64,000 bases of DNA. Origin: Nymphaea colorata (Eukaryota). Under the pieces are notes generated by a model that made no database searches, was not told the DNA's origin, and saw only the letters and a list, made by a program, of their open reading frames with translations. Below, one piece after another: positions 135 to 54,880 of this stretch. Location: the NCBI RefSeq assembly GCF_008831285.2, contig NC_045138.2, forward strand, positions 24,180,001 to 24,244,000. Reading direction: 5' to 3'. The translations under genes were made by a program, and so were the position numbers. Within the stretch, counting starts at the first letter, position 1; each line of letters starts with the position of its first letter.

Positions 135-1755
135 CTTGTTGAGGCCACAAACACAAACAGTAGTAGCGCTCTCACTATAAAAGCTTACTGGAATGACGTC
201 TTCCCTAGCACTCCCATGCCCAATGCCATTCAAGCTCTCCTACCATCCTCTTCAAAGATAAGAGGTACTTTCTTTTTCTCTCTCTCTCCCAAAAGCGTCG
301 ATCTAGTAAGGATTTGGAGAAATTAGTGGTTTCTTGGGAATGTTTATAGTTGCCCTTTTCTTACATTTTCATTTCTATCGAAGCTATTATTTAGAAGAAA
401 ATTTTAAAATAACATTTCTACGCCTTTCAAAATTCACGGAATTACAGTGCTTGCAGAAAGGCAGGCATGCACTCATGTTAGTTCCTAGCGTTTGTAGAAT
501 GGGGAGCCTTGTGAGCCGAGACGGGCTCACTGGAGGCATATTATCAAATCAGAAAAGAAAATTCAAATCTAACTAACAACCGACTGGAATTGCAGTATAT
601 GTGGTTTTGACGACTGTTTCCCTTCCAATCTTTGCGGCTCGTTGGGGCCACAAACCAAAGAACACGTTTTTAAAGTTTTTTTTTGGTGTTTTTTCACTAT
701 TTTTTCAAAATTTTTAAAGCCAAACAGTTTTTTTTTTTTTTTTTAATTATTACAAATCTACTTATCTTTTGATGTTTGTGTTATTAGTTTCTCACTTATT
801 TTAATTATTTTAAAATTTTAAAAAATTTTGTATTTTTTTCTCTTTTTGCTTTCTTCAAAGTCACTACTGAGAGCAACAGTTTAAAACTTTGAGATGTCAT
901 TTGTGATATATATATTAAGAAATAAGATTGAACAGCGAGCCTTTTTCAATTACTACTGCAGGAGTTGGTTCTGGACCAAGTATTCGCTGGGGTGAAAGGT
1001 GGGGTGTGTTGGGGCACAACCACGATCAGTCTAAGCGTAATTGGTCACCGAACCTTGCACCTCTATATTTCTTAAGGGACGACCTCCACCCTGGTAGCAA
1101 GATGAACGTCACCATAATGATCAGCCCGACAATGGTAGATGGTTCTAAAGGTGGTATCAGCATTGAGCCAACCTTCTTGCCACGCCAACAAGCTCAAGCA
1201 ATTCCCTTCTCCACCTCCAATCTCACTACCATCCTTAAGACGTTCTCCATTCAACCCCACTCTGAGTACGCATCTTTTACAAGGCAAACGCTTCAAGATT
1301 GTGAGGGGCCTGCACTTAAAGGAGAAGTTAAGTACTGTGCAACATCTCTGGAATCCATGATCGATTTCGTTGTCGCAGAACTCGGAAGCCGTGAGATTCA
1401 TGCAGTCGTCACTTCCGTTGTTAACAAAGAGGAGAAGGTGAAGGCGAGGACTTACAGAGTAGGTGATGGAGGGGGGAAAGTGATGTCTTCCAAAGTTGTG
1501 ACATGCCACGACGTCACGTTTCCTTATGCCGTCTTCTACTGCCACAATTTCCAGGGCACAAGGCCATACATGGTTCCATTGATTGCTGATGATGGTAGCC
1601 GAGTAAACGCCATTGCTTTGTGCCATTTTGATACATCAAATTGGAACCCTGGACACGCGAGCTTCCGGTTGCTGGGTGTGAAACCGGGAACTGTTCCCAT
1701 TTGCCACTTCATTCTAAAGGATCTCGCCTGGGTGACCTTCACGCTACCTCCTTAG
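135..1755 (+). CDS. BURP-domain protein copy 1 (exon 2 135-264, exon 3 962-1755; exon 1 lies upstream of the window); A/B chimera
   Basis: Exon 2 LVEATNTNSSSALTIKAYWNDVFPSTPMPNAI with cag/gt boundaries and a phase-1 intron. Exon 3 has the BURP signature CH-X10-CH-X25-CH-X25-CH-X7-W. An 8-bp deletion turns the usual C-terminus WVPN* into WVTFTLPP*. Confidence 0.85.
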
Positions 1756-4700
1756 TATGCGCCGGCTGTGTCCTAACCGGGGAAGCCACATGTGAGCTTA
1801 TGTGGGCAGTTGCCTACACAGTTTCACGTAATCTATTTATTTATATATTAGTTAGTCTCATTTATTTGCATACTAATTTTATATAATAATATTCGTGCAC
1901 CTCAAATATTATTTGCTTATTATCTACGGTGCCCTTGATTCATTTTATTATGTATTGGTTGCGATGACCATGTGGGCAAGTCTGTTTGTCTTCCTTTATT
2001 CACAACTTCTATGACACATGCTCTGGACTTATCAATCGAATCTATTGTCATTGTCAGGAAACTTGGTGAAAGCTTTCCACCAGATTATCTTATTTCATGT
2101 TGTTTTACTCCAACCGAAATTCATGAAGAAAGAAGAGAGAAATATCAACCATGTACACCTGTAAAGGAAATCCAACCTTATAGACTAATAAGCTGGGACC
2201 TCTGCCCTGCATGAAAGGTGAAAAGACAAAAGAAAGGCAAATGAATTATCAACTGTATACGCTGAAAGGCGATGCGTCGTACATGTATACAAAAACAGAG
2301 TATCTCTGTTTACTTGTCTACACAGACCTCTTCCTTGAAAAAGATGATAAAAAAAAAAAGGTTTGACGCCATACATGGTCAATTTTACTGAGCTTTCACT
2401 GCCTTCATGCTCAAAATAGACAAGATTCTGATATTATCTGCCCTGTTTTCTTGGACGTCTCAAACCACAACTTTTTTAACACCATCACCCTATTAACATG
2501 TGATGCAGATTTTTTAAACACTTTTCAACCCCATCACTATATTAATTTGTGATGTAGTTATTTTAATTATTAAATCGCCATATGGCCCTCAATAAACAAA
2601 GGCATCAGCATATGTGTTAATTTGTGATGCAATTGATAACAGGTAGTCAACATGACAATGCCCGTAGAGAAAATATGAGAACCATATGTCCTCTTGGGTG
2701 TCTGGAACTATGTTATTCGTCACCAGTGAAGGCGCCACAGCCCTATGATCAATTGCATAATATTGATGCTTACGTTGAATACCCAACTAACGTAACACCT
2801 TGCTGTCAAACATAAGAAAATGTCCTGATATGTGATCTGCTTAAGATCCAAGGCCTTCTCCAGAAGGGTGACGGATTCCAGAGGGAACAGAGCCTCTGGT
2901 TCTTTGATCACCATGTGCTAACTTAAACAAAGTAAACGCCGCGACATCTGTTGGCATGGTTTTCCCATTTCGACGACAGAATGCGGAGACAGATCTTCCA
3001 TCCCAACTTCCCTCCCTTTTCCAAGTTTTCCGTACTCACCGTCCACTTATTGTTTGGGACATCGATCTTTGAGTTGTCGACCATTGATCAGTTGATTAGT
3101 CCACACTGACTGTCAAACTAATTTGACAGAAGAAGTTGCTTTTGCCTTTCATTTGAGAACGAATTCGGACATATGCAAAGACTATTGAGCAGTTTACTTG
3201 TAAAAACAAGACTTTAGATGTGGGCTAATCAACTTGTCATATTTGGAGGAAAAATCTTTAACTTGCCTTCCGCATATGTCGTCACGTAGAAACTAACAAT
3301 AAATAGAGAAATTTACTAGTAATCTCTCAAACCTTTGACATATTTATAAATCAACAAAATGAACGTAATGGTTCGGAAATTGAAGAAAAGATGCTTGTTA
3401 ATTTCATGATGAGAGAGAAGTAGTAATGAGAAAAAAAACTATCAGTTATGCATTTTTTTTCTTAAATTTTTGACATATTTACGATACTAAATTTGACAAA
3501 ATGGTTCAGCAAAATTAAATATTTCAGAAATGAAGTTGCCCATTTTCACGAACCGTTTCAAGAATGCAACATACCACAGGCTTGAATCGGACCTCCCGTT
3601 AATCAAATCAGAAAAGAAACTTCAACTCTAACTAATGAATTTGAGTTGGCTGCATATTCAATTCTAACAAACATCCCAATCCATTTAGATACAATAATTC
3701 AACTTCATTGTGCATTTCATAGGAATCCAAATCCGAACAAGCAGCATGTGACCAGTTAAAATCACATGATTCAGAACCCTGTTTTAGTTGTCTGCCATTT
3801 TGGATTCCTTCCTGCTCATGACCTAAAAATCTGTTGACTCTCTCTCAAAACCAAAATAATGGATTTACAGTCGATGACACTGGTGATTCTTTTTTGCAGT
3901 ATAGACAATTGATGCATATCAACCCTCACCCGAGCAGTTGCACCAACACCTTTAAGGATTTGTATGCATTGTGTATATGCGCGTAAATACATATAAGAAC
4001 ATGGAGATAATACAAATCAATTCTTTTCTTTTGTTGGAGATAAATTTGTTTAACCTGCGGTATCGACGATGATTCCTCTCTCAACTTTCCTTCCATCAAC
4101 ACTTCCATCTCTGTTGCAGGGGGGAAAGTTTCTTCTCAGAACACATGGAGGTCAATATCGGTTGCTATCCATTGATGTGAACTTTTTCTCAGCAAATCCA
4201 CTTCCGTCCCAGCCTGCATAGGGAAGTGGACCAAATGGGGAGGCCGGAAAATTCAACATTCTGGCCGCTAGATGATCTGTGGAGTAAAAACCGGCCAATT
4301 CACTCACCTACTATTCACCTCAGACTAAAAACGTCGGAGCCGACTTCGAGAAAAAAAAAATACTTGATCATTTTCTAAGTATTTGTGATGTTACCGTATA
4401 TTTTTCTGACCCACAACGTATCCTACCCGTATCAATCCATTCACGTGTGTTTGGTGCGTGGGGACACTCACATTCCCGGGAAACTGTAAAAGAAAAGAAA
4501 AACAGGAATTTTAAAATTTAAAACAAGGGATTTTTATTTGGGTCCTACTTTTTAATTATGATCGGTTTTTAATTTCCAATCTTTGTTTAACAGACCTCAG
4601 TTAGAAAAGGGCAAAAAAAAAAATGTTATCATCTTACACGACGTAGAAATTTGTGCTTTTCATCATTTCATTTTAAAAGCAAAAAAATGAAAAAGTATTT

Positions 4701-5176: not shown

Positions 5177-6694
5177 ATGGATAACATCATCTCCATCGTC
5201 TCGCTCTCAACCCTCTTTCTCGTAAGTGCTCATTGTCTCTCCTCCATCCAAGTAGCAAACCCTATGATTCAGGCACCGTAGAACTTCCGAGTGAGGGCCA
5301 CCCTACCTGCTGGGAATTGAGCCGGTGTCTACCGCTTTCAGCTTTACCACATCGCTGCACACACGTCTCAAACGAGGGAGCATGTGTTTTCATAACCAAG
5401 CAGTCTTTTTGCACAAAGATTGCCTCCATTATCCGACTTGAATTGCAACCTATATGGTGGATGATGACTGTTTCCTTTTTTCAATCTTAGCAGCTCGTTG
5501 TGGCCACAAACGATGGCTCTTCTACTATAAATTCTTATTGGAACGAGGTCTTCCCGAGAACCCCCATGCCCAATGCCATTAGAGCTCTCCTGCCATCCTC
5601 TCCTGAGATATCAGGTACTCTATTAGTGGTCCTCTTATCTGTTAGCTTTTCAGAAAATAACAGGAACATTTTTTTCTCTGGCCCGTCATGACTGGTGCTG
5701 ATGAATTGAGACTATGGAATTGTGTGTATACACACACACAAAGAAATAGGATTCACCAAGTTACCTTTTTCACTTACTGCAGGATTTAGTCGCGGTCTTC
5801 ACCACTATGACCAAGTGGAAACACCTCTTTATCCTCAACCCTGGGGTAGAAGGTGGGGTGTGTTGGGTAATGACCACGATCAGTTTAAGAGTAATTGGTC
5901 ACCGAACCTTGCACCTCTGTATTTCTTAAGGGACGACCTGCAGCCTGGTAGCAAGATGAACGTCACCATCATGATCAGCCCGACAATAATAGATGGTTCT
6001 AGACTTGAGGCTCCATTTCACATGGAGCTTTCTTGGGCTGGCGTGGGCAGGCGCCCACGCCTGCCCCACGCTGGCTCCGCCACTGGTTCTAGTGGTGGTA
6101 CCAGCATTGAGCCAACCTTCTTGCCACGCCAACGAGCTGAAGCAATTCCCTTCTCGACCTCCAATCTCACTACCATCCTTAATCCTTAAGATGTTCTCCA
6201 TTCAACCCCACTCTGAGCATGCATCTCTTACAAGCCAAACGCTTGCTGATTGCGAGATGCCTGCACTTAAAGGAGAAGTTAAGTATTGTGCAACATCACT
6301 GGAATCCATGATTGATTTCGTTGTCGCAGAACTTGGAAGCCGTGAGATTCATACAGTGGTCACTTCCGTTGTTAACAAAGAGGAAAAAGTGAAGGCCAGG
6401 ACTTATAGGGTAGGTGATGGAGGGGGAAAGGTGATATCTTCCAAAGTTGTGGCATGCCACGATGTGATGTTTCCTTATGTCGTCTTCTACTGCCACATTT
6501 TCCCAGGGACAAGGCCATACATGGTTCCTTTGATTGCTGACGATGGTAGCCAGGTGAATGCCATTGCTTTGTGTCATTTTGATACATCAAAATGGAATCC
6601 TGGGCATGCCAGCTTCCAGTTGCTAGGCGTCAAACCTGGAACTGTTCCCATTTGCCACTTCATTGTTAAAGACCTTGCTTGGGTCCCCAACTAA
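5177..6694 (+). pseudogene. BURP-domain gene copy 2, type B (exons 5177-5221, 5494-5614, 5783-6694), frameshifted
   Basis: Signal-peptide exon MDNIISIVSLSTLFL|gtaagt. A 7-bp tandem duplication ATCCTTA (6175-6188) shifts frame, giving a stop at 6189. There is also a 90-bp in-frame insertion at ~6003-6092. All four CH motifs are in the shifted frame. Confidence 0.85.
5994..6092. mobile_element. Short transposon-like insertion in BURP copy 2 exon 3 (truncated MITE/hAT-like)
   Basis: Absent from paralogues (compare 51031). Flanked by direct repeat TGGTTCTAG (5994-6002, 6084-6092). GC-rich internal hairpins. Right end GCTCCGCCACTG resembles a plant hAT-type terminal inverted repeat. Confidence 0.55.
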
Positions 6695-7889: not shown

Positions 7890-7952
7890 TGGAGAGATAG
7901 TTGCCGCCTTCTCCATATAGATGATCATTTGAGTTCGAGCCAGCTTACTACA

Positions 7953-8342
7953 ATGGGAAGCTGGATTTCATTCTTCTCACTCTCAACTCTCCTTCTGGTA
8001 AGTGCTCGTATTCATCAACTCCCTTCGTTGCTAGATCTACACTCCGGGCTTCAGGCAGCCGCGGGATTCGGCCTTCCACAACGCTGCAAACACTATGGTC
8101 TCCAACAAGGAGGAATTTCTTTCCGTCATAAAAAAAGATTCAGTATTAATCCAGCAGCATATATGGTGGATGGTGGTTGTTTCCTTTTTTATTTTTTTCC
8201 CCCTCTTACCAGCTTGTTGAGGCCACAAACACAAACAGTAGTAGCGCTCTCACTATAAAAGCTTACTGGAATGACGTCCTCCCCAGCACTCCCATGCCCA
8301 ATGCCATTCAAGCTCTCCTACCATCCTCTACAAAGATATTAG
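7953..8342 (+). pseudogene. BURP gene copy 3, type A; exons 1 (7953-7997) and 2 (8213-8342) only, exon 3 lost
   Basis: MGSWISFFSLSTLLL|gtaagt and exon 2 are intact. Intron 2 is interrupted by the copia element, continues to ~14465, then switches to unrelated intergenic sequence. Confidence 0.8.
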
Positions 8343-9601: not shown

Positions 9602-9652
9602 AGCTCCCCCTCCAGCCTCAAGTGAGGGAACATACCTGCAAAATGAACAAAA

Positions 9653-13655: not shown

Positions 13656-13674
13656 GTTGGCTCTGATACCACTT

Positions 13675-14334: not shown

Positions 14335-15850
14335 TGTGTCTGTGTGCGTGCATGTGAAATAATTGACGGCAATTTGAGACTCTTTAACCAGCGCTTGTGT
14401 GAAAGTTGTTCCTATTTGAAACATGGTGTAGGAAACATTTGGCGGTGATTGGAAGATATTCAAGATTTGAGTATGTATGTGTCCCGAACAATGATACGGA
14501 GGGCAGGGGAAAGAAGATCTTGTCTCCTGTATTCTGTCATCGAAATGGGAAAATCATGTCGTTAGATTTCTTCCCGTTTACTTTGTTTAAGTTAGCACAT
14601 GGTGATCAAAGAACCAGAGGCTCTGTTCTCTCTACAATCTATCCCCCTTCTAGTGAAGGCCTTGGATCTTAAGCAGATCATATACCAGCACATTTTCTTA
14701 TGTTTGACATCACAGTATCAAGTTAGTTGGGTATTGAACGAAAACATCAATATTATGCAATTGATCATCCGCCTTCACTGGTGACGAATAACATGGTCCC
14801 AGACACCCAAGAGGACGTATGGTTCTCATCGGGCATTGTCAAATTGACTACTTGTTACCATCTGCATCCCAAATTAACACGTACGGTGATGCCTTTGTTT
14901 ATAGAAGACCATATGGTGGTTATTTATAAATATGTCAAAAGTTGAGTTATTATTCATAATTTTTTTTTTCAATCAACGAGCTAAACATATTTTATATGGG
15001 TATACATACAAATATCATTTTCTGACTTATATATACGATGGAAATGGCAACACAGAATATCTAAAGCCATGACTGTCTGTTCGTCAGCCAAAAGGAGCAT
15101 CCTACTATCACTTTCATACCAGTGAAAGCAAATTAAAAATGAAGAAATGGATGAGAAATTAAAGAGAAAAAAAAGGACAGAGAGAAACTGAGTGCGATGA
15201 ATATACAGATCAGAGGACCCACAAACGAAAGATGCTGATTTAGCATGAGGGGCTATCGTAAAGGTCTTCCTAACACCATCTTGCTTTCATTAAAACGACA
15301 CGCTTGTTAACGTCATTTGAGATCCTTCTTTCTAAATTAGAATGAACAACGATTCGAAGGGCAAAACAAATATGCAGAGAAAAAATTGGTCCACGACTAC
15401 TGATAATCTGAAATGGATCACTTGGTCGAGGTCCACAAGTAAGCAATAACGAGGCAGACACCCCCAGCTTGGTAGTCTCCATTATTCGTCTGTTTAATTT
15501 CTTTCTTACTAATGAATTTTTATTCTGAAGCCGATCAGCATCTACATCTGCAGCTAGATCATTTTCTTTCAGAAGAAATGAATGTATGCATTTTATCGGA
15601 TGAAGAAAAAAGGCCCGATTTCTCCATCTTACCTCATTTACCGAATTTTATTTAACCCCACTTTGTTAATTGGACTCATACTACAACATTCCGGAAATTG
15701 AAAACTTTATAGTGTTCCTCAAAGAGTTGGAAACTTCGAGAAGCTTGTACCTCTTTTGTGGGAAACAGATCGCTTCATTTAGAACAAAGAACCTCAATCT
15801 ATTCTGGTATCTGTTTTATCGTTGTATGCTCACTTTTTTTTTATAAAAAT

Positions 15851-16554
15851 CTAAGCAGCAACGAAGAGGCTGAAAGATTAGACTGGGAAAAAAGGGTGAA
15901 CATCATAATTGGTGTTGCCGATGCTTTGTCGTACATGCATCATGATCATTCAGTTCCAGTAATTCATCTGGACATCTCTAGCAACAAGATTTTGTTATAT
16001 CCCGATTTCGATGCATGCATTTCAGACTTTGGAACAGCCAAATTACTGAACCCAGATTCATCAAATTGGACTGGCCTTGCAGGACACACCGCTACATGGC
16101 AACAGGTACGCACTAGAATTTTTTGATCATGCAGCGTTTTTTGCTTTGTCAATAAACCTTGTTTGTTTTTTTGTGGGTGCTAACTAAAGATGACCACTTT
16201 ACTGCAGAGTTGGCATATGCCATGAGAGTAACAGAGAAATGTGATGTCTACAGGTTTGGGGTGGTAGCTCCTGAAATTCTAATGGGAAGGCACCCAGGAG
16301 AACTATTGTCGTCTCTGGTTATTCTCAAAAAGCAAGAGCTTGATGTAAAGCTCTGGGATATGCTGGACCAACGAATACCAGCTCCAGGGGACCAAGAAGC
16401 AGAGTTGGTGGCTGCTGTAGCCAAGCTTGCAGTCATGTGCAAAGACATGAAACTGGTATCACGGCCTACAATGCGCTCTGTTTCTCTGCATCTGTCATCT
16501 CCCAGCAGAAAGCATTATTTGTTCAAAGCCTTACAAGACAATCATGCATCATGA
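15851..16554 (+). pseudogene. MIK2-like LRR-RLK remnant (C-terminal half of kinase only)
   Basis: [18 protein letters not shown]...HLDISSNKILL...DFG, then the conserved intron and last exon. HRD is mutated to HLD, there is a frameshift before APE, and the ectodomain and N-lobe are absent. Confidence 0.9.
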
Positions 16555-18178: not shown

Positions 18179-19513
18179 ATGGATAACATGATCTACTACT
18201 TCTCGCTCTCAATCCTCTTCCTGGTAAGTGCTCATCGTCTCTCCTCCATCTGAGTAGCGAGCCCTTCGATTCAGGCACCGTAGAACTTGAGAGGGAGGGC
18301 CACCCTACCTGCCAGGAATTGAGGCGGTGTCTGCCGTCTTTGGCATTCCCACATCGCCGCACACACGTCTCAAACGAGGAAGCATGCGTTTCCATAACCA
18401 AGCAGTCTTTTCACACAAAGATTGCCTCCATTAGTACGACTTGAATTGCAGTATATATGGTGGATGACGATTGCTTCCTTTTTTCAATCTTAGCAGCTCG
18501 TTGGGGCCAGAAACGATGGCGCTTTTACCATAAGTTCATATTGGAATGAGGTCTTCCCCAGAACCCCCATGCCCCATGCCATTCGAGCTCTCCTGCCATC
18601 CTTCTCAATGATGCCAAGTATTCTATCAGTGGTCTTCTTATCCGTTAGTTTTCCAGAAAAAAAGAAAAGAAAATTCTTTTATAAAAAATATTATATATTG
18701 ACCAGCTAGCCTTTTTCACTTACTGCAGGATATGGTGGTACACCTTGTCGTTGTGCCTGGGGTGGAAGGTGGGGTGTGTTGGGGCACAACCACGATCAAT
18801 CTAAGCGTAATTGGTCACCGAACCTTGCACCTCTATATTTCTTAAGGGACGACCTCCACCCTGGTAGCAAGATGAACGTCACCATAATGATCAGCCCGAC
18901 AATGGTAGATGGTTCTAAAGGTGGTATCAGCATTGAGCCAACCTTCTTGCCACGCCAACAAGCTCAAGCAATTCCCTTCTCCACCTCCAATCTCACTACC
19001 ATCCTTAAGACGTTCTCCATTCAACCCCACTCTGAGTACGCATCTTTTACAAGGCAAACGCTTCAAGATTGTGAGGGGCCTGCACTTAAAGGAGAAGTTA
19101 AGTACTGTGCAACATCTCTGGAATCCATGATCGATTTCGTTGTCGCAGAACTCGGAAGCCGTGAGATTCATGCAGTCGTCACTTCCGTTGTTAACAAAGA
19201 GGAGAAGGTGAAGGCGAGGACTTACAGAGTAGGTGATGGAGGGGGGAAAGTGATGTCTTCCAAAGTTGTGACATGCCACGACGTCACGTTTCCTTATGCC
19301 GTCTTCTACTGCCACAATTTCCAGGGCACAAGGCCATACATGGTTCCATTGATTGCTGATGATGGTAGCCGAGTAAACGCCATTGCTTTGTGCCATTTTG
19401 ATACATCAAATTGGAACCCTGGACACGCGAGCTTCCGGTTGCTGGGTGTGAAACCGGGAACTGTTCCCATTTGCCACTTCATTCTAAAGGATCTCGCCTG
19501 GGTCCCCAACTGA
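18179..19513 (+). CDS. BURP-domain protein copy 4 (exons 18179-18223, 18497-18617, 18729-19513; ~316 aa); type B 5' end with type A 3' end
   Basis: Open spliced frame with signal peptide, YWNEVFP-TPMP motif, variable segment RYGGTPCRCAWGGRW and four CH motifs. The exon 2 donor A|gtattc is weaker than in paralogues. Confidence 0.85.
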
Positions 19514-22243: not shown

Positions 22244-22555
22244 TGTTAGGAACAACACAATAAACACTCCTCTCACACGCTCAAGAAGGGGTTAGAAGCA
22301 ACAAGGAAGAAGACAACGATTTACGTGGTTCAGAACAATAATCTCCTACGTCCACGGTCGCACAGATCTCTTGTATTCTCTCTCTTCTATGAACACACAG
22401 AACAGACACTCTCAGCGGCGGCCATCCTCAAAACATAAGGATTAGAGCAAACCCGCATTTGTACAAAATGACCCATATGCCCTTACATGAAGAAAAAATT
22501 TCTCAGCCATATTGCAAATGAGTGTCCAGTATGGATCAACTTCCATACACCAACA
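22244..22555. mobile_element. Solo LTR (312 bp)
   Basis: TGTTAG...CCAACA termini; perfect 5-bp TSD CCAGC (22239-22243, 22556-22560); absent from intact RLKs. Confidence 0.88.
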
Positions 22556-23478: not shown

Positions 23479-23767
23479 TGTTAGGAACAGCACACAATAA
23501 ACTCTCCTCTCGCACTCTCAAGATGGGGTTAAAAGCAACAAGGAAGAAGACAACGATTTACGTGGTTCAGAGCAATAATCTTCTACGTCCACGGTTGCAC
23601 TTGTATTCTCTCTCTTCTATGAACACACAGAACAGACACTCACAAGCGGCGATCATCCTCAAAACATAAGGATTAAGGCAAACCCGCATTTGTACAAAAT
23701 GACATATATGTCCTTACATAAAGAAACAAAGAAGTGTCCAGTATAGATCAACTTCCATACACCAACA
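23479..23767. mobile_element. Solo LTR (289 bp), same family as 22244-22555
   Basis: TGTTAG...CCAACA termini; TSD TAGAG/CAGAG (one mismatch) duplicating the RLK splice acceptor. Confidence 0.85.
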
Positions 23768-29240: not shown

Positions 29241-29367
29241 AAAGCTCTTGGGATATGCTGGACCAACGAATAGCAGCTCCAGGGGACCAGGAAGCAGAGA
29301 TGGTGGCTGCTGTAGCCAAGCTTGCAGTCATGTGCATAGACATGAAACTGGAATCACGGCCTACAAT
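29241..29367 (+). pseudogene. Small fragment of LRR-RLK last exon
   Basis: [39 protein letters not shown] matches the RLK kinase C-terminus. Confidence 0.85.
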
Positions 29368-33717: not shown

Positions 33718-35451
33718 ATGGGCTGCTGGATTTCATTCTTCTCACTCTCAACTTTCCTCCTGGTAAGTGCTCCTATTCATCAACACCCACAACGCTGCAA
33801 ACACCATGGTCTCAAACAAGGAGGAATTTCTATTATAAAAAAAGATTCTCAGCATTAATCGAGCAGCATATATGGTGGATGATGGTTGTTTACTTTTCTT
33901 TTTGTTTTTGTTTTTGTTTTTTCCTTCTTACCAGCTTGTTGAGGCCACAAACACAAACAATGGCTCTCTCACTATAAAAGCTTACTGGAATGAGGTCTTC
34001 CCCACCACTCCCATGCCCAATGCCATTCAAGGTCTCCTACCATCCTCAACAAAGTTCTTAGGTACTCTCTCTTTCTCTCTCTCTCAAAAGCATCGCTCTA
34101 GCGAGAGTTTGGAGAAATTAGTGGTTTCTTAGGCATGTTTATACATGCCCTTTTCTTGCTTTTTCGTTTCTATCTAAGCTATTATTGAGAAGAAAAAGTT
34201 AAAATTACATTTCTACGGCTTCCCAAATTCACAGAATCACAGTTCTTGCTGAAAGGCAGGCATGCCCTCATGTTAGTTCCTAGCATTTGTAGAATGAGGA
34301 GCGTTGTGGGCGTGCACGGACTCACTGGCTGGGAAAAGTGAGTGTAGCCAGTCATCAAGGCAGTCCATTTATTTGAGGCATATTATCAAACATTCTGCGT
34401 GTATAAACGTTCAATATGAAAGTTGAAGGAAATATATTGTCGTCATTGCAGGAAGGCATCCCGCATGTTCTGCGCACAAGTCCAAATGGATTGCATATGT
34501 CTACCAGATACCATGTGTCTGTGTGTGTGCGTGTAAAATAATTGACGGCAATTTGAGACTCTTTAACCAGCTTTTGTGTGAAAGTTGTGCCTATTTAAAA
34601 CTCGAATTTTTTCAAAAGCATAACTAACTAAGATTGACAAAACTTTAACTTAATTTCTTCCTGCAGGATTTGGTGGCCCAGGAATCAGACCTTGGATTAG
34701 TAGGTGGGGCGCACTGGGGCACAACCATGATTCGTCCAACGTCAATTGGTCACCGGATCTTGCACCTCTTTATTTCCTAAGAGAAGACCTCCAACCTGGT
34801 AGCAAAATGAACGTCACCATGATGATCAGACCTGAATCATATGCTTCTAGCGATGGCCGCAATGTCAGCTCTGAGCCAACCTTCTTGCCACGCCAACAAG
34901 CTGAGGCTATTCCCTTCGCATCCTCCAATCTCACTGCCATCCTTAAGATGTTCTCCATTCAACCCCACTCTGAGCACGCATCTCTTACCAGGCAAACGCT
35001 TGCCGATTGCGAGATGCCTGCACTTAAAGGAGAAGTTAAGTACTGCGCAACATCTCTGGAATCCTTGATCGATTTCGTTGTTGCTGAATTCAGAACCAGT
35101 AAGATTCACGCCGCCGTCACTTCTGTTGTTAACAGAGAGGAGGAGGTGAAAGCCAGGAGTTACAGGGTAGGTGTTGGTGGGGGGAGGCTGATGTCCCATA
35201 AAGTCGTGACATGCCATGAGACGATGTTTCCTTGTGCAGTGTTCTACTGCCACAATTTTGCAGGGACACGGCCATACATGGTGCCATTGGTTGCTGATGA
35301 TGGTAGCCGAGTAAACGCCATTGCTTTGTGCCATTTTGATACATCAAATTGGAATCCTGGACACGCGAGCTTCCAGTTGCTGGGTGTTAAACCGGGAACT
35401 GTTCCCATTTGCCACTTCATTCTGAAGGATCTCGCCTGGGTCCCCAACTGA
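33718..35451 (+). CDS. BURP-domain protein copy 7, type A (exons 33718-33762, 33935-34061, 34667-35451; ~318 aa)
   Basis: TATA box, canonical introns, open frame, variable segment GFGGPGIRPWISRW, four CH motifs. Confidence 0.92.
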
Positions 35452-40101: not shown

Positions 40102-41418
40102 ATGGACAGCTGGATTTCATTCTTCTCACTCTCAGCTCTCCTCCTGGTAAGTGCTCCTATTCATCAACTCCCACAACACTGCAAACACCATGGCTCAAAC
40201 AAGGAGGAATTTCCATTATCAGAAAAAGATTCTCTCAGTATGAATCTAGCAGCATATATGGTGGGTGATGGTTGTTTCTTTTTTTCACCTTCTTACCAGC
40301 TTGTTGAGGCCACAAACAGAAACAGCAGTAGCTCTCTCACTATAAAAGCTTACTGGAATGAGGTCTTCCCCAGCACTCCCATGCCTAATGCCATTCAAGC
40401 TCTCCTACCATCCTCTACAAATATATCAGGTACGCCCTTTCACTCTCTCTCCGAAAAGCGTCGTTCTAGTAATGGTTTGGAGACATTAATGGCTTCCTGG
40501 GCATGTTTATGGTTGCCCTTTTCTTACTTTTCAGTTTTATCTAAGCTATTATTGAGAAATAAAATGTTAAAATTAATTTTTTCTATGCCTTCCCAAATTC
40601 ACGGGATCACAGTAATTGCAGAAAGGCAGGCAGTTCCAACGCTCTCGGAGACCTTCGCGTCTAACCATTTGGGGGTGGGGGGCGCATGCCCCCACACGCA
40701 AACCACTTGGTCAAAGGAGCGCCTACTGGCACCACCAACCAAGGACATAAGCTTGTCGGTCTCATGAGTCGGCCTAGTTGATTGGATCGACCAGCCAATC
40801 AATCGTTTTCTCTTTTTTGTAAAATCTGCCGTATCTTGTGAAATGCATATTCCAAATTCATATAAAAATGACATTTTATTTTGTAACATTTAAGGACCAT
40901 TAGTTGGAACGTTTGAGCCTAAATGGATAACACGATCTCCTTCTCGCTCTCAACCCTCTTCCTAGTAAGTGCTCATTGTTTCTCGTCCATCCCTACGATT
41001 GAGGCACAGTAGAACTTGCGAGTGACGGCCACCCAACCTGCCGGAAACTGAGGCGGTATCTGCCGTCTTTGGCTTTCCCACATCGCCGCACACATGTCCC
41101 AAACGGGGAAGCATGCTTTCCCATAACCATGCACCTCTTTTCGTCACTAATGCGACTTGAATTGCAGAATATATGGTGGATGACGACTGTTTCCCTTTTT
41201 CAATCTTAGCAGCTCGTTGGGGGCCACAAACGATCATAAGTTCTTACTGGAATGAGGTCTTCCGCAGAAACCCCATGGCCAATTCCATTCGAGCTCTCCT
41301 GCCGTCCTCTAGTACTCTATTAGTGGTCCGCTTATTTGATAGTTTTCCAAAAAAAAAAGAAACATTCTTTACTCTTGCCCGTCATGACTAAACTAGTGCA
41401 GGTGAATTGAGACCAGGG

Positions 41419-41456
<38 letters not shown>

Positions 41457-41794
41457 TAGTCAAACAAAACGTGTTACTTTTAAAAAAATGTGATAAATTA
41501 AATGGCAGTTTAAAATTTGAAAAAAAATGCTTTTTTTTAAAAGGTTAAAAATGAAAAAAAGGTTTTAAAACTTTTTTTTTGTGTTTTTCACATTTTTTTA
41601 TTTTTTTAATGCCAAACAGTTTTTTTTATTTTTTATTTATTGCAAATCTACTTATCTTTTGATGTTTCTCACTTATTTTAATTTTCTAATTTTTTAAATT
41701 TTTAAGAAATTTCATATTTTTTCTTTTTTTTGTTTTTTTTACACTCACCGTATTATATTTGAAAAAAACCATTTAAAACACCGAGATGTCATTT

Positions 41795-41834
<40 letters not shown>

Positions 41835-42692
41835 GAAATAAGATTGACCAACTAGCGTTTTTCACTTACAGAATTTGGTTATAGATATGGTGGCCCTTTT
41901 CGCTATCGCTATCGCTGGATTCAGAGGTGGGGTGTGTTGGGTAATGACCACGAACAGTCTAAGCGTAACCACGAACAGTCTAAGCGTAATTGGTCACCGA
42001 ACCTTGCACCTCTGTATTTCTTAAGGGACGACCTGCAGGCTGGTAGCAAGATGAACGTCACCATGATGATCAGCCCGACAATAATAGATGGTTCTAGCGG
42101 TGGTATCAGCATTGAGCCAACCTTCTTGCCACGCCAACAAGCTCAAGCAATTCCCTTCTCCACCTCCAATCTCACTACCATCCTTATGATGTTCTCCATT
42201 CAACCCCACTCTGAGCATGCATCTCTTACAAGCCAAACGCTAGAAGATTGCGAGAGGCCTGCACTTAAAGGAGAAGTTAAGTACTGTGCAACATCTTTGG
42301 AATCCATGATCGATTTCGTTGTTGCAGAACTTGGAAGCCATGAGATTCATTCAGTGGTCACTTCCGTTGTTAACAAAAAGGAGAAAGTGAAGGCCAAGAC
42401 TTACAGGGTAGGTGATGGAGGGGGGAAGGTGATGTCTCCCAAAGTTGTGACATGCCACGACGTGACGTTTCCTTATGCCGTCTTCTACTGCCACAATTTC
42501 CCGGGGACAAGGCCATACATGGTTCCATTGATTGCTGAGGATGGTAGCCAGGTGAATGCCATTGCTTTGTGTCATTTTGATACATCAAAATGGAATCCTG
42601 GCCATGCCAGCTTCCGGTTTCTAGGCGTCAAACCTGGAACCGTTCCCATTTGCCACTTCATTGTAAAAGATCTTGCTTGGGTCCCTAACTAA
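40102..42692 (+). CDS. BURP-domain protein copy 8/9: type A exons 1-2 (40102-40146, 40300-40429) plausibly spliced to type B exon 3 (41872-42692); ~331 aa
   Basis: Intron phases are compatible and the joined frame is open. Variable segment EFGYRYGGPFRYRYRWIQRW; four CH motifs. The native type B exon 2 in between is frameshifted. Confidence 0.65.
40923..41315 (+). pseudogene. Decayed type B exons 1-2 nested in the intron of copy 8/9
   Basis: MDNTISFSLSTLFL|gtaagt (40923-40964); exon 2 from 41213 has +1 and -11 indels giving an early TAA, and a shortened donor region. Confidence 0.75.
41456..41795 (+). mobile_element. AT-rich dispersed repeat, MITE-like (other copies ~655-910 + and ~39265-39600 -)
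   Basis: Shared GCCAAACAGTTTTT...AAATCTACTTATCTTTTGATGTTT...GAGATGTCATTTGTG. Flanked by (TA)n on both sides here; the reverse-complement copy is at 39.3-39.6 kb. Confidence 0.55.
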
Positions 42693-44583: not shown

Positions 44584-46074
44584 TTGCAATTTGCTTGCTG
44601 ACACATATATATGGCTAGCAGTTGCAGAATTAGGAGCACAAGAAGAAAGGAAAGCTTCAGCTTTGGATGCTTTCTGGATAAGCCCTGTAAATTTGCTAGT
44701 GTTAATTCCCTCCTCTCGATGCACCTTTCCGTTTTCCACTCTCTCATCATGGGTCGCCTTCCATATTCTTTTTCACTATTACTGTCTATGTATGGACCAC
44801 GGACAGCAGGAGACTGAATTATCGATGGGGACATGGCGGACTTTGAGATAATTGGTGAACTTGGAGATACTTGGTGTTTGCAAGTGGGTTCACATGTCCC
44901 TGACTCTCATCAATTTCTTCTTCTTGTTACCTAACAGCAGAAGACTCAATTATCGATGGGGACATTGAGATAATTGGTGGACTTGGAGATAATTGGTGTT
45001 CGCAAGTGGGTTCACATGTCCTTGACTCTCATCAATTTCTTATTGCTGTTTTGAGAGAGAGAGAGAGAGAGAGAATCCAAAGGGAAGGCAAATGCCAGCA
45101 GCAATAATTTTGGTCAAAGCTTTTGGTACATTTTGTTATCTAAACTTTTTTTATACATAAAAAGAATGACCAACAAGGGTGTGCGAAGATGGTTGGATTG
45201 TTTTTTTTTTCACATTAAAACTGCTTTCTTTCTTGCTTTCTAAATTCAATGGAGAGAGACACTCTGTACCGACAAGACAATAATATGGTGGTAGAGCTAA
45301 TTAAATGTATCGAGAAGACAATAATGTGGTGGTGGAGATATAGAAAACTCTTTTGTAAGGACAAAATGAAAATAGGTAAAAAGTAAAAAAAACTAGAAAG
45401 AACATTCTTTTTTTTAAATTACAAAAATGTCTCCTCTGTTCTTAAAATCAGATTTAGTTTTTAATAAATATTCTATAGCTAATGCTTATATATTTTGAAA
45501 GTCAGCTGAATTCTACTTAAAATTCAGATTCAAATATTGAATTAAGAATACGAAATTGGATCTCAGATTCATATTTTGATACTACTTTTTTTCATTCAAA
45601 TTTAAACCTGTCTATGTGAACAAAAAAAAAGCAATATAACTGAAAGTAGATCCCATTTGAATCTGATCTGTTAACATCCTCAATCTTCCTAAGCATATGT
45701 TGGGTGCAACATGTTGGTATCCCTTTTCATAGAGACAAAATTAATGCACTAAAAGCAGTCTCCAATTTAAGATCTTTTCTGTACATTAATAGGAATGGAC
45801 AAAAGAAATTGACAAAAGAACAAGTACACATGTAAGATTGAGCTCGTATAGAATGAACAACGATCGAAAGGGCAAAAAAATAATAACCTGAAATGGATCA
45901 CATGCTCTAGGTCCACAAGTAAGCGATAACGCGGTCCATTTCTCATGAATTGGGTCTTCTCGTCAACAAAAGTCCACTCTCCAAATCTTGTCACGACCCT
46001 CAAGTCTCCCTCCCACCTTTATATTTATATTAATGAATTCCAAATAACAGTCTATCTCTGTGGCACCAGAAACG

Positions 46075-49000
46075 ATGGCATCAACCATGAGAACGGAGTC
46101 GCTGCTGCAGCTTTTGTTCTTTCTTTTGAGTATATGTTCACCAAGAAACACGGCTGCTCAGCCGCTAAAGGCAGAAGCAGAAGCGCTTCTCAAGTGGAGA
46201 GACAGTCTCCAAGCTGCCCATCTACTGAATTCTTCTTGGTCGTTCCTCAACTCTAACTATCGCCCCTGCCACTGGGATGGGATAGCATGCGGCGGTGACA
46301 ACACGAGTATCGTCAAGATAAGTCTTCAAAACCATGATCTTCAAGGTACGCTCGACCATTTCGACTTTGCTGCCTTCCCAAGTCTTGCATATTTGGATCT
46401 TAGAGGTAACAATTTTTATGGAAGCATTCCCGATGGTATAGGCAACCTCTCCAAACTTTCCTTCCTTGACCTGTCGGTGAATCAGTTTTCTGGCAGCTTA
46501 CCGGAAAGTATGGCCAATCTTAAGAACCTTGTTTCTATAAACATGTCATTCAACTCGCTCACGGGTCCTCTCCCTACTTCTATTGGACAACTGCCTAGTC
46601 TTGTGAATTTAATCATCAGTGACAACCTTCTGACTGGTGCTATTCCTCAGACGATAGGAGAGCTTAAGAATCTCAACTTCTTGGACCTTGATACGAACTC
46701 ACTTACAGGTTCAATTCCAGCCCAAATTGGAAATTTGTCCAATCTGCACCTTCTGTTCCTTGAGGACAATTTCTTGACTGGCACCATTCCACCTGAACTA
46801 TGGAAGCTTAGTAAGCTCACTCAGTTAGATTTGACATCTAACTTTCTTCCAGGTAGAATCCCTCCTTCGATAGGTAACATGTCTAATCTTTACTTCTTGG
46901 CTTTGAACAATAATAGCCTTTCTGGTTCTCTACCTCCGCAGATGAAAAATTTCACGAGTCTAGGCTTTTTGTACCTTTCACAAAATAATCTCTCTGGTTC
47001 TTTACCATCAGACATATGTAAGGGTGGTAAACTCATCCAATTTGCCGCTTACAACAACCATTTCTCTGGACCAATACCAAAAAGCTTGAGGAATTGTACA
47101 AGCTTGTCTAGACTTAGATTACATGGGAACCAACTTAATGGCAGCATTTCAGAGGCATTTGGATCCTACCCCAACTTGTCCTACATTGACATGAGCAACA
47201 ATCAATTAACAGGAGAGCTCTCACAAAACTGGGGCGGATGCCCTAGACTTGAACACTTGGATTTCTCTAACAACCACATCACTGGCAAGATCCCAAGTTC
47301 GATATCCCAAATGGCACAATTGAAGGAGATAAATATTTCTACCAATTATTTAACAGGAGAGGTTCCAGGAGGAATAGGGGAACTGTCATTCTTGTTGAAG
47401 ATGGACTTGAGCAACAATCAAATTTCAGGGGGCATACCATTTGAGATTGGCAGGTTGACAAAATTGCAAGAACTGGATTTATCATCCAACAACATCCAAG
47501 GACCAATACCTGAAGAGCTTGGGAATTGTGATGAATTGATTCTATTGAAGATGAGCAACAACAGCTTAAGCGGAACAATTCCTTTTCAGATAGGAAACTT
47601 GGCACAATTGCAGATACTACTAGATCTTAGCAATAACATGCTATTGGGGTCGATACCAAGCCAACTTGGGAAGTTAAATCGTCTGGAGAGACTCCGTCTT
47701 TCCCATAACAAGCTTGTGGGTACAATACCATCATCATTGGTCGGAATGAGTAGTTTGACGTCAGTCGATTTGTCCTTTAACAATCTCACGGGGCCTCTTC
47801 CAAACAACCCTGCATTTCTGAATGCTTCAACAGAATCATTCATAGGTAACCTTAACTTATGTGGAGGACATGCCTTGCAGCTATGCAAGCCTCCCTCAGA
47901 GGTAAAAAGTCAAAAAATGATGTCCATTATTATTCCAGTAGTTGCTGTGCTCATTCTTATATTCCTTGTTATTGGAATTTACAAAGTTTGGCCAAAAGCG
48001 ATGCAGAGGCAAGACAAAAGAAGCATTCTTGCCGAAACAAACCATGGAAAGGATCTATTTTCTATATGGAACTATGATGGCAAACTTGCTTATGAAGATA
48101 TTGTCAGTGCTACAGACAATTTCAGTGATGAGTATGTTATTGGTAGAGGAGCACATGGAAGCGTTTACAGAGTTGAACTGCCCACAGGTCAAATTGTGGC
48201 TGTCAAGAAGTTCAACCAAACCGGTAGTGATATGTTAACAGACTTGGGCTTCAGAAATGAGATTAAAGCATTGACAGAAGTCCGCCACAGGAACATAGTC
48301 AAGCTCTATGGATTTTGTAAGCATCCTCAATGCTCATTCTTGGTGTATGAATACATAGAGAGAGGAAGCTTGGCAAGCATACTAAGCAGCAACGAAGCCT
48401 CTGAAAGATTGGACTGGCCAAAAAGGGTGAACATCATAACTGGAGTTGCCGATGCTTTGTCATATATGCATCATGATCACTCAGTTCCAGTAATTCATCG
48501 GGACATCTCTAGCAAGAACATCTTGTTATATCCCGATTTCGATGCATGCATTTCAGACTTTGGAACAGCCAAATTACTGAACCCAGATTCATCAAATTGG
48601 ACTGGCCTTGCAGGGACACACGGCTACATGGCACCAGGTACGCACTAGAATTTTTTGAACATGCAGCGATTTTTGCTTTAAAGTGGCCTTATTCCATTAG
48701 ATCCATCAATAAACTTTGTTTGTTTTTTTGTGGGTGATAACTAAAGATGACTACTTTACTGCAGAGTTGGCATACACCATGAGAGTAACAGAGAAGTGTG
48801 ATGTCTACAGCTTTGGGGTAGTAGCTCTTGAAATTTTGATGGGAAGGCACCCAGGAGAACTATTATCATCTTTGGTTATTCTCACAAGGCAAGAGCTTGA
48901 TGTAAAGCTCAGGGATATGCTGGATCAACGAATACCAGCTCCAGGGGACCAAGAAGCAGAGATGGTGGCTGCTGTAGCCAAGCTTGCAGTCATGTGCATA

Positions 49001-49126
49001 GGCATGAAACCGGAATCACGGCCTACAATGCGCTCTGTTTCTCTGCATCTTTCCTCTCCCAGCAGAAAGCATTATTTGTTCAAAGCCTTACAAGACAATC
49101 ACTCAAACAGATATGATGCATCATGA
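46075..49126 (+). CDS. MIK2-like LRR receptor-like Ser/Thr kinase (exons 46075-48637, 48765-49126; ~974 aa)
   Basis: Signal peptide, C-x-W-x-G-I-x-C cap, ~21 plant LRRs, [17 protein letters not shown] juxtamembrane, [24 protein letters not shown] motifs typical of the MIK2 clade; phase-1 intron in GYMAP|E. Confidence 0.95.
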
Positions 49127-50243: not shown

Positions 50244-51807
50244 ATGGATTACATGATCTCCTTCTTCTCGCTCTCAACCCTCTTCCTGGTAAGTGCTCAT
50301 CGTCTCTCCTCCATTCGAGTAGCGAGCCCTACGCATCAGGCACTGTAAAACTTGCAAGTGCGGGCCACCCTACCAGCCGGGAATTGAGGCGGTGTCTGCA
50401 GTCTTTGGCTTTCCCACATCGCCACACACAAGTCTCGAACCAGGAAGCATTCTTTTCCATAACCAAGCAATCTTTTGGCACAAAGATTGCATTCTTTTCC
50501 ATAACCAAGCAGTCTTTTGGTACAAAGGTTGCCTCCATTAATCCGACTTGAATTGGAGTATACATGGTGAATGACGACTGTTTCCTGTTTTCAATCTCAG
50601 CAGCTCGTTGGGGCCACAAACGATGGCGCTTCTACCATAAGTTCTTATTGGAATGAGGTGTTCCCCATAACCCCCATGCCCAATGCCATTCGAGCTCTCC
50701 TGCCATCCTCTCCAGAGATATCAGGTACTCTATTAGTGGTCCTCTTATCTGTTAGTTTTACATATATATATATATATATATATAGCATTGACTAACTAGT
50801 CTTTTTCCCTGATTTGCTCAGGATTTAGTCGTGGTCTTCACCACTATGACCAAGTGAGACCATCTCCTCGTGGTCAAGCCTGGGTTAGAAGGTGGGGTGT
50901 GTTGGGGCATGACTACGATCAGTCTAAGCGTAATTGGTCACCGAACCTTGCACCCCTGTATTTCTTAAGGGACGACCTGCAGCCCGGTAGCAAGATGAAC
51001 GTCACCATGATGATCAGCCCGACAATAATAGATGGTTCTAGTGGTGGTACCAGCATTGAGCCAACCTTCTTGCCACGCCAACGAGCTCAAGCAGTTCCCT
51101 TCTCGACCTCCAATCTCACTACCATCCTTGAGATGTTCTCCATTCAACCCCACTCTGAGCATGCATCTCTTACAAGGCAAACACTTGAAGATTGCGAGAG
51201 GCTTGCACTTAAAGGAGAAGTTAAGTACTGTGCAACATCTCTGGAATCCATGATCGATTTCGTGGTCGCAAAACTCGGAAGTAGTGAGATTCATGCAGTG
51301 GTCACTTCAGTGGAAGTAGTGAGATTCATGCAGTGGTCACTTCAGTGGTTAACAAAGAGGAGAAAGTGAAGGCCAAGACTTACAGGGTAGGTGATGGAGG
51401 GGGGAAGGTGATGTCTCCAAAAGTTGTGACATGCCACAACATGATGTTTCCCTTTGCCATCTTCTACTGCCACAATTTTCCGGGAGCAAGGCCATACATG
51501 GTTCCATTAATTGCTGACGATGGTAGCCGGGTGAATGCCATTGCTTTGTGTCATTTTGATATGTCAAAACCACAACATGATGTTTCCTTTTGCCGTCTTC
51601 TACTGCCACAATTTTCTGGGAGCAAGGCCATACATGGTTCCATTGATTGCTGACGACGGTAGCCGGGTGAATGCCCTTGCTTTGTGTCATTTTGATACGT
51701 CAAAATGGAATTCTGGCCATGCCAGCTTCCGGTTACTAGGCGTCAAACCTGGAACTGTTCCCATTTGCCAGTTTATTGTAAAAAACCATGCTTGGGTCCC
51801 CAACTAA
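50244..51807 (+). pseudogene. BURP gene copy 10, type B (exons 50244-50288, 50604-50724, 50822-51807), frameshifted
   Basis: A 35-bp tandem duplication (51277-51346) gives a stop at 51369; there is also a 136-bp duplication (51434-51705). Variable segment ...QVRPSPRGQAWVRRW. Confidence 0.88.
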
Positions 51808-53295: not shown

Positions 53296-54880
53296 ATGGG
53301 CTGCTGGATTTCATTCTTCTCACTCTCAACTCTCCTCTTGGTAAGTGCTCCTATTCATCAACACCCACAACGCTGCAAACACCATCGTCTCAAACAAGGA
53401 GGAATTTTCATTATCAAAAAAGGTTCTCAGTATTTATCCAACTCGAAGTGCAGCATATATGGTGGATGATGGTTGTTTCCCTTTCTTTTTTGTTTTTTTT
53501 CTCCCTCTTACCAGCTTGTTGAGGCAACAAACACAAACAGTAGCTCTCTCACTATAAAAGCTTACTGGAATGAGGTCTTCCCCAGCACTCCCATGCCCAA
53601 TGCCATTCAAGCTCCCATACCATCCTCTTCAAAGATATTAGGTACTCTCTCTCTCTCTCTCTCAAAAGCATCTAGTAAGGGTTGAAAGTAACTTTTTGAA
53701 AGAGCTGCTGTCATTGCTGCGAGAACTCATTGAATCGAGTCTTCAATTTAGAGAAAGAAGCTACCAATTCTTTTCTGTTCACAAGCAAAAGGTGTGTAAT
53801 CTGAAGACACGGCTAAATTTGGTGGGAAAATGGTTTCGGCAAACGTTTGTGCACAAAAAATGATAAATTTTATTGTTTTTGGTGCGGTATTTTTTATTTT
53901 TATGCCACAACAAAAAAAACACTCCATTTTCTGGAACATATGGACTAGAGAACTAGTAGTATGTCATATATATATATATATATATAATCGAGTTTTTCCA
54001 AATCATAACTAAGTAAGTTGACAAAACTTGTCCTTCTTAATTACTTCCTGCAGGATTTGGTGGCCCAGGAATCCGGCCTTGGATTAGTAGGTGGGGTGCA
54101 CTGGGGCAAAACCATGATTCGTCCAACGTCAATTGGTCACCGGATCTTGCACCTCTTTATTTCCTAAGAGAAGACCTGCAGCCTGGTAGCAAGATGAACA
54201 TCACCATCCATGATGATCAGACCTGAATCATATGCCTCTAGCGGTGGCCACAATGTCAGCTCTGAGCCAACTTTGTTGCCACGCCAACAAGCCGAAGCTA
54301 TTCCTTTCTCATCCACCAATCTCACTACCATCCTTAAGATGCTCTCCATTCAACCCAACTCTGAGCACGCATCTCTTACTAGGCAAACGCTTGCCAATTG
54401 CGAGATGCCTGTACTTAAATGGGAAGTTAAGTATTGTGCAACATCACTGGAATCCTTGATCGATTTCATCGTCGCAGAATTCGGAACCAGTGAGATTCAC
54501 GCCGCCGTCACTTCTGTTGTTAACAAAGAGGAGGAGGTGAAGGCCAGGAGTTACAGGGTAGGTGTTGGTGGGGGGAGGCTGATGTCCCATAAAGTCGTGA
54601 CATGCCATGAGACGATGTTTCCTTGTGCAGTGTTCTACTGCCACAATTTTGCAGGAACACGGCCATATATGGTGCCATTGGTTGCCGAGTAAACGCTATT
54701 GCTTTGTGCCATTTTGATACATCAAATTGGAATCCTGGACACGCGAGCTTCCTGTTGCTGGGTGTGAAACCGGGAACTGTTCCCATTTGCCACTTCATTC
54801 TAAAGGATCTCGCCTGGGTTCCAGATGACCTTCCTGCTACCTCCTTAGTATGCGCCAGCCGTGTCCTAGTGATAAACTAG
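53296..54880 (+). pseudogene. BURP gene copy 11, type A (exons 53296-53340, 53515-53641, 54054 onward), frameshifted
   Basis: A 4-bp duplication CCAT at ~54204-54211 gives TGA at 54224-54226; 13-bp deletion near 54685; altered stop region. Confidence 0.88.

Follow-up and report, generated by a model that had tools for sequence, protein, structure and literature searches.

The stretch of Nymphaea colorata DNA analysed here (contig NC_045138.2, positions 24,180,001 to 24,244,000; 64,000 nucleotides, called the window) holds a tandem array of nine RD22-type BURP copies, c1 to c9, all on the + strand. Judged from their sequences, these copies represent an expansion in tandem of RD22-type BURP proteins that is specific to water lilies, with one diversifying W-x-x-x-W segment, the cassette, ahead of the BURP domain in each. 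The variable residues of the cassette bear a strong signature of diversifying selection between lineages, and within a lineage the cassette is conserved. The reading proposed, with a probability of roughly 0.55, is that the array encodes candidate single-core fused burpitide precursor-cyclases, which would owe their diversity to gene duplication and not to repetition of the core. According to the available part of a review (PMC11253845), the class-defining feature of fused precursor-cyclases is a macrocyclic bond installed by the BURP domain. Class membership hinges on such a bond, and the copies are candidates by their architectural likeness to a fused burpitide precursor.

The BURP copies and their cassettes

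The gene models were built by coordinates, with GT-AG introns, and a BURP domain was recognised by a Pfam match together with the pattern CH-x10-CH-x25-27-CH-x25-26-CH. The copies and the type example of the cassette segment are the following.

135..1755, + strand: c1, whose exon 1 lies off the window, with exon 2 at 135-264 and exon 3 at 962-1755; cassette WGERW at 988-1002 (+ strand), open frame, four CH motifs
5177..6694, + strand: c2, broken, with an in-frame insertion and a 7-nucleotide duplication frameshift; cassette QP-WGRRW (+ strand), Trp-to-Trp 5842-5856
18179..19513, + strand: c3, intact, 316 amino acids; cassette WGGRW at 18758-18772
26003..27736, + strand: c4, broken by a frameshift, second CH motif deleted; cassette WISRC at 27040-27054
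30538..31859, + strand: c5, intact, 326 amino acids (database protein P0004); cassette WAKGW at 31104-31118
31047..31118, + strand: type example of the cassette segment, from c5; ten conserved codons, nine hypervariable codons, then W-x-x-x-W
33718..35451, + strand: c6, intact, 318 amino acids; cassette WISRW at 34693-34707
40102..42692, + strand: c7, intact on condition that exon 3 at 41872 is joined to the exons 40102-40146 and 40300-40429 (P0003, 331 amino acids); cassette RYRYR-WIQRW (+ strand), Trp-to-Trp 41916-41930
50244..51807, + strand: c8, broken, with two internal duplications; cassette WVRRW at 50881-50895
53296..54835, + strand: c9, broken by frameshifts; cassette WISRW at 54080-54094

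Translation of the + strand gives all nine motifs at these positions, with the upstream residues given for them in the preliminary description of this DNA. Each gene has one motif, placed 9-20 codons past the phase-1 acceptor of exon 3. The first Trp (W1) is present in all nine copies and the last (W2) in eight, c4 reading W-x-x-x-C. The preliminary description had contrasted the fixed Trp with varying residues between them, and this contrast has to be narrowed: position +1 after W1 is only Gly, Ala, Val or Ile, position +2 is the most variable with six residues, and position +3 is Arg in 8/9 copies. In the five copies in which the spacing was measured, the last Trp lies 21 (c1, c3, c5, c6) or 28 (c7) residues before the BURP domain. 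The conserved, variable and motif parts of the segment have the same length in c2, c5 and c8 and align without gaps. Between the start of exon 3 and W2, the seven copies examined carry 2-5 Arg or Lys and 0-2 acidic residues, and Gln at position -2 occurs only in c2 and c8, both broken.

The six-frame translation of the window contains 66 WxxxW matches, eight of which are the cassette. Since the nine copies are paralogs, the recurrence of the motif reflects descent and not nine independent events, and the invariance of the Trp is by itself unremarkable (132 of 225 BURP-domain columns are invariant). None of 244 downstream three-codon windows is as diverse as the three inner codons, and none of 241 six-codon windows is as diverse as the six upstream codons. 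What goes beyond chance is the contrast of the fixed Trp with the residues flanking them, not Trp invariance alone.

Open frames with four CH motifs, spaced 10/25/25, are found in five of the nine copies (c1, c3, c5, c6 and c7), and all five intact exon-3 frames match PF03181 at E<=5e-68. The CH motifs, taken to be intact in the preliminary description, are so in these five; c2, c4, c8 and c9 are broken and cannot encode a BURP domain in frame. That description had also tied the missing W2 of c4 to the decay of this copy. c4 does lack W2 and one CH motif, but it is not the only pseudogene, and the argument is weak because the pseudogenes c2, c8 and c9 keep both Trp. Nucleotide identity of the BURP domain among the nine copies is 82-100%, and exon 3 of c1 is 100% identical to the database protein P0002. 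RNA mapping on 30480-35520 (about 6% of run X19 read, 383 reads placed) gives 9 and 13 reads that skip the two introns of c5, and c6 is covered at lower depth; the three exons of c6 also lie on one contig of run X1, which is guessed to be RNA. Run X20 contributed no reads and is not counted here. Splicing is seen in both copies tested, c5 and c6.

The BURP DNA of c1 and c3 is identical over about 700 nucleotides (1030-1733 and 18800-19503, offsets 42-745 after W1), yet their exon 1-2 types, cassettes and 3' ends differ. This combination of identical BURP DNA with different cassettes points to recent gene conversion of the enzyme part, or else to an assembly artefact. c7 carries short tandem units, and a broken exon 1-2 pair lies within its second intron (40923-41311), so that this copy appears to be a chimera of two gene types. 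The RefSeq-type models P0005, P0012 and P0015 bridge broken copies, P0015 joining c4 to a kinase remnant, and were not accepted as real proteins. At the end of the window, 63745-64000 holds a broken BURP exon 1 followed by the start of a further copy, and the database proteins P0006, P0013, P0016 and P0017 are not encoded in the window. The array continues past the window end, and the copies outside it are known here as database proteins only.

Two further features of the segment can be mentioned. Cys residues surround the first aromatic residue in some clade members (C-R-C in c3, 18740-18772; C-P-W-C, C-P-Y-C and CCC in P0006, P0010 and P0013), where a disulfide could accompany a Trp ring or act as a redox pair. 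A second variable, indel-prone loop, at codons +46 to +56 after W1 (31240-31275 in c5, with its counterparts in the paralogs), lies shortly past the start of the BURP domain, roughly where the internal core of AhyBURP-type cyclases is found; it includes several positions that score as selected and almost no aromatic residues.

Diversification of the cassette

The signature of selection is clearest in the gap-free comparison of c2, c5 and c8. Their 12 variable codons show 9, 10 and 1 changes at codon positions 1, 2 and 3, against 23, 21 and 46 in a background of 243 codons, so that positions 1 and 2 relate to position 3 as 19:1 in the cassette and as 44:46 in the background (Fisher p=1e-4). The fixed-site ratio of replacement to silent substitution rates (omega) is 6.1 in the cassette and 0.48 in the background, and the ten conserved codons ahead of the variable stretch have a single silent change. 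Control tests were added because the tested region had been picked after being seen. Omega above 1 still holds when a free local rate is allowed (p=1e-4). The best of 235 background windows reaches 9 changes at positions 1 and 2, compared with 19 in the cassette, and in none of 3000 genes simulated as fully neutral did a 12-codon window attain 19. If neutral evolution is made faster, the chance of seeing no more than one third-position change is p ~0.001. Intron 1 of the three copies has diverged by 14-16%, compared with 28-44% for the cassette. The codon-position, free-rate and simulation tests all speak against neutral-rate variation, which the preliminary description had named as an outcome fatal to its proposal.

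Within lineages the picture is reversed. The 11 cassette codons of c4, c6 and c9 show no replacement and two silent changes (small numbers), and the 193 BURP codons of the same copies show 36 and 28. WAKGW is kept in contigs of organism B, read by hand: X6 and X7 have two silent changes, and X5 has one silent change and three upstream replacements. A shorter leader precedes WVRRW in one contig of organism C, also read by hand. The positively selected BURP sites reported earlier were all in the C-terminal domain, according to the available part of PMC6102523.

Comparison with burpitide cyclases

The comparison drew on the available parts of PMC11253845, PMC12056006, PMC12037056, PMC12186524, PMC11250218, PMC8672867, PMC11991032, PMC6102523, PMC8448819 and bioRxiv 10.1101/2025.05.22.655486, and the statements on known burpitides below are limited to these parts, which list no burpitide producer from the Nymphaeales. 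The encoded proteins have a hydrophobic N-terminus, the RD22 N-terminal helix, one low-confidence segment that ends in the motif, and the BURP domain. This is the layout of the RD22-type fused cyclases GheBURP (glechomanin), OmaBURP1, KjaBURP (moroidin), CcaBURP1 (cercic acid), LbaLycA (lyciumin) and SkrBURP (selanine), in which a Trp-ended segment lies about 20 residues before a four-CH BURP domain, and the fused burpitide-like architecture claimed in the preliminary description is borne out. The distance of 21 or 28 residues compares with 15-24 between the last Trp and the domain (24 in GheBURP and 19 in OmaBURP1, counted from sequence; 20 and 15 in two database proteins that carry repeats of the moroidin type), a Trp-ended core at substrate distance being necessary for such a cyclase and not sufficient. 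Unlike these cyclases, the window copies have a single core that starts with Trp and lacks a fixed N-terminal Gln, and their variety lies across paralogs.

The core itself is unfamiliar, as the preliminary description had held. No copy has the QPx5W core of the lyciumin type, which is recognised by this motif and a bond from the Trp nitrogen to an sp3 carbon; the closest is QPWGRRW of c2, one residue short. The QLxxW type of stephanotic acid, moroidin and glechomanin is absent, position 1 being Trp and position 2 Gly, Ala, Val or Ile in all nine, and the C-terminal aromatic residue is Trp, unlike the Tyr phenol ether of cyclopeptide alkaloids. A match to a "known core" pattern among the homologs was discarded, as it fell on signal-region residues of Prunus proteins. 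A close frame is that of nanamin from Nicotiana (core QPWGLMY, bond Gly4-Tyr7; PMC12037056), which shares an aromatic-Gly-x-x-aromatic arrangement with the first Trp outside the ring, and c2 fits QPWGxx-aromatic. The recent birth and pseudogenisation of paralogs is also common to both; the window copies differ in their single core and in ending it with Trp instead of Tyr. The likeness is probably convergent because the clade nests among Nymphaeaceae RD22 proteins, in a tree in which no Solanaceae cyclase was knowingly included. Arabipeptin A (split precursor, FLWGY) and cercic and stephanotic acid (QIxxW, QLxxW) share a frame of five residues, the second aliphatic and the fifth aromatic, but the window genes are fused and not split, combine Trp1 with Trp5, and have Arg at position 4 in 8/9 copies. 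The USP-type AhyBURP (PDB 8SY2/8SY3) is the only significant PDB match (sequence E 7e-32; model TM score ~0.74 on the target). It has the same fold and a single core, but in it the BURP domain contains the core, and the window segment precedes the domain.

The course of chemistry, localisation and proteolysis that we infer, taking characterised cyclases as the guide, would start with entry into the secretory pathway, followed by copper- and oxygen-dependent intramolecular oxidation of the single segment by its own BURP domain. The bond would join the indole of the last Trp to an sp3 carbon of the Gly, Ala, Val or Ile three residues upstream. Many characterised burpitides have their C-terminal aromatic residue joined to an sp3 carbon at this distance, as in cercic acid (Ile2-Trp5), stephanotic acid (Leu2-Trp5), glechomanin (Val4-Trp7) and arabipeptin (Leu2 to the C-terminal Tyr). 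Because position +1 is always one of these four residues and known cores use such aliphatic acceptors, the last Trp is more likely to link to +1 than to the first Trp. A bond to the beta carbon of W1 would be possible, at the spacing of lyciumin, whose acceptor is the Gly four residues upstream of Trp. A direct ring-to-ring link between W1 and W2 ranks lower, since Trp-His is the sole aromatic-aromatic burpitide bond named in the available part of the review (PMC11253845). The first Trp would serve as an exocyclic anchor, as in nanamin, or take part in closing another ring. Proteolysis would afterwards release the peptide along with some of the nine variable residues upstream of it. Since all nine fall under the selection, part of this stretch is probably retained in the mature product. 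Diversity would be produced by gene duplication and by a conversion that homogenises the cyclase domain and spares the cassette, without repeated cores. A role of the peptides in defence is a guess from the selection pattern.

Several observations weigh against this proposal. CH motifs occur throughout the BURP family and are no mark of catalysis. Characterised RD22-type cyclases usually have tandemly repeated cores, a feature that does not define the class, and every window gene has a single core; the nine cassettes share no invariant N-terminal Gln. In the available part of a survey of split precursors, N. colorata is not among the known producers, although that survey excluded BURP-fused transcripts. 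The site-wise dN/dS check called for in the preliminary description gives a divided answer: the model on all nine copies is significant (p=0.001; posterior >=0.99 for positions -1, +1 and +2), but 17 non-cassette sites are flagged as well and pseudogenes and conversion weaken this test, and the unbiased M1a/M2a comparison on c2, c5 and c8 is not significant (p=0.26). The strongest test rests on these three copies, two of them pseudogenes. Selection also peaks ahead of the Trp pair, a pattern that would fit any exposed loop in conflict with a pest. An aromatic-x-aromatic-x-aromatic motif of the F-x-Y-x-Y type occupies the place of the cassette in 81 of 198 other BURP proteins, and no report of cyclisation of this RD22 motif was found in the literature searched.

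Other negative results concern the surroundings of a burpitide pathway. No short protein carrying the N-terminal region was found (0 matches among 2 candidates), and no protease, glutaminyl cyclase, methyltransferase or oxygenase that might tailor a product appeared among the 30 of 107 long frames scanned with Pfam. Two array-specific linker motifs are absent from the available content of 8 supplements of PMC12056006.

RD22 relatives, neighbouring receptors and alternative readings

The start of the domain served as an anchor in 220 of 262 homologs, of which 208 have at least 45 upstream residues. Outside the clade, WxxxW is found in 2 of 198 BURP proteins, near the domain in neither, so it is no ordinary RD22 motif, the other finding that the preliminary description had named as adverse to it. 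In ordinary RD22 proteins, the nearest relatives by tree, a conserved F-x-Y-x-Y lies behind a Gly/Val-rich region, 14-15 residues before the domain in 71 homologs; the window copies have W-x-x-x-W at 21 residues in its stead. In a midpoint-rooted tree of 60 of the 262 proteins and five window copies, with no characterised cyclase knowingly included, the water-lily clade (100/100, stem 0.48) falls inside a Nymphaeaceae RD22 group (99/99; branch of P0019 and P0020). From this nesting, the cassette is most simply read as a lineage-specific replacement of the RD22 aromatic motif. The clade is set apart from ordinary RD22 proteins by its long stem, a short N-terminal region and the diversifying cassette. 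Its members outside the window include the Nymphaea proteins P0001, P0006 and P0017, which keep both Trp as W-x3-W, P0010 of Victoria with Y-x3-W, and P0013 with the last Trp only. P0001, of N. thermarum, is the only protein with Trp at i, i+4 and i+8 before the domain, forming overlapping W-x3-W-x3-W.

The most serious alternative, although an unlikely one, takes the product to be the whole RD22-like protein, apoplastic or vacuolar. The Trp pair would be a lineage version of F-x-Y-x-Y, perhaps cross-linked in place or to the wall, and the loop would diversify as a target that proteins of pathogens or herbivores bind to or cleave. The equal i/i+4 spacing of the aromatic residues, the nesting of the clade with F-x-Y-x-Y-bearing proteins, the single motif and the lack of a fixed Gln all suit this reading. 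In the structural models, however, predicted local confidence (pLDDT) is below 50 across c5 residues 58-98, the cassette segment included, and ~53 around the RD22 motif; with confidence this low for both motifs, the models lend no support to a purely structural role. Moreover, RD22 motifs are conserved, whereas the cassette flanks diversify between fixed anchors and then freeze within a lineage. In P0020, the F-x-Y-x-Y at residues 114-118 has a frame like that of the arabipeptin core FLWGY and low confidence in the fold, which suggests that RD22 proteins may carry an ancestral self-substrate.

Less probable is a linear Trp/Arg-rich peptide, membrane-active or binding, released or displayed without a BURP cross-link, in which the i/i+4 Trp would share one helix face. 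Trp/Arg antimicrobial peptides are the comparison for such a product. It would agree with the diversifying selection and with the basic character of the segment (RYRYRWIQRW in c7), but c1, c3 and c6 are among several weakly basic copies, and both the placing of the segment at substrate distance from a fused four-CH BURP domain and the restriction of +1 to Gly, Ala, Val or Ile would be left unexplained.

The neighbouring genes of the array bear on a further alternative. Receptor kinases of the MIK2 type with leucine-rich repeats (LRR), or remnants of them, are interleaved with the BURP copies, and a BURP fragment is followed by a retrotransposon.

7953..8342, + strand: orphan BURP exons 1-2 without exon 3, next to a Copia element
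15806..16554, + strand: kinase-only remnant of a MIK2-like receptor, upstream of c3
22548..24135, + strand: transmembrane-plus-kinase remnant of a MIK2-like receptor, upstream of c4
29252..29368, + strand: 39-codon remnant of a MIK2-like receptor, upstream of c5
46048..49126, + strand: LRR receptor kinase of the MIK2 type with open frames in both exons, 1118 bp upstream of c8
60504..63554, + strand: another LRR receptor kinase of the MIK2 type, likewise with open frames in both exons, the broken BURP exon 1 next

The Copia-type element (8942-14334, - strand), just behind the orphan exons, has long terminal repeats of about 660 bp that are 98.9% identical, a 5-bp target-site duplication, and a coding region in several frames. 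BURP genes and MIK2-like receptors alternate as one duplication unit, and hitch-hiking of the receptors in block duplications is the default reading. It is improbable that the cassette peptides are ligands of these receptors and the array a set of linked ligand-receptor pairs, a reading compatible with burpitides. A receptor or remnant does lie 0.2-1.9 kb upstream of five BURP starts (c3, c4, c5, c8 and the broken start at 63745), and receptors of the MIK2 clade perceive peptides, according to the available literature. The two full receptors, 77% identical and differing by one LRR, are most variable at exposed LRR positions, which diverge faster than the rest (proportion of replacement differences, pN, 0.22 vs 0.09). 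Yet pN there does not exceed the silent proportion, pS (0.22 vs 0.25), and MIK2-clade genes duplicate readily in many species in the same literature. Block duplication alone explains the adjacency. The 120 receptor matches listed, of 7928, include none from N. thermarum or Victoria, which bears on a conserved linkage in neither direction. Strict receptor-BURP pairing is unlikely because both intact receptors precede broken BURP starts and the intact c3 and c5 follow remnants. Slightly more far-fetched still is the combination in which water lilies made the RD22 F-x-Y-x-Y, independently of other lineages, into a single-core class of Trp burpitides, possibly with a Trp-Trp link that would be unprecedented, whose peptides are ligands of the adjacent receptors; if true, this would be the first linked cyclic-peptide/receptor gene array in plants. 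A neutrally drifting linker, made to look variable by conversion of the BURP domain and by slippage in length, is already disfavoured and hardly credible: the differing cassettes of c1 and c3 beside identical BURP DNA, the tandem units of c7 and the non-significant three-copy site model would allow it, but third positions are nearly unchanged where first and second differ (p ~0.001 under a faster neutral rate), and introns are far less diverged than the cassette.

The reading of the array as single-core burpitide precursor-cyclases has consequences for how such genes are sought. The literature searched yielded no paper that treats these genes or a burpitide core of the form WxxxW, although key subscription papers and bioRxiv supplements could list such; in the absence of any earlier description there, this W-x-x-x-W BURP array is a candidate novelty. 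Published burpitide mining, according to the available parts of the literature, looks for repeated cores or fixed Gln-start motifs, and single-core genes are therefore invisible to it. If active, the proteins encoded here would yield, relative to the literature compared in its available parts, the first burpitides from an early-diverging angiosperm, together with a new core frame, and diversifying selection beside a fixed aromatic residue would offer a way to find hidden cores. The positional match with the RD22 F-x-Y-x-Y bears on the origin of fused cores and on a possible self-modification of RD22 proteins.

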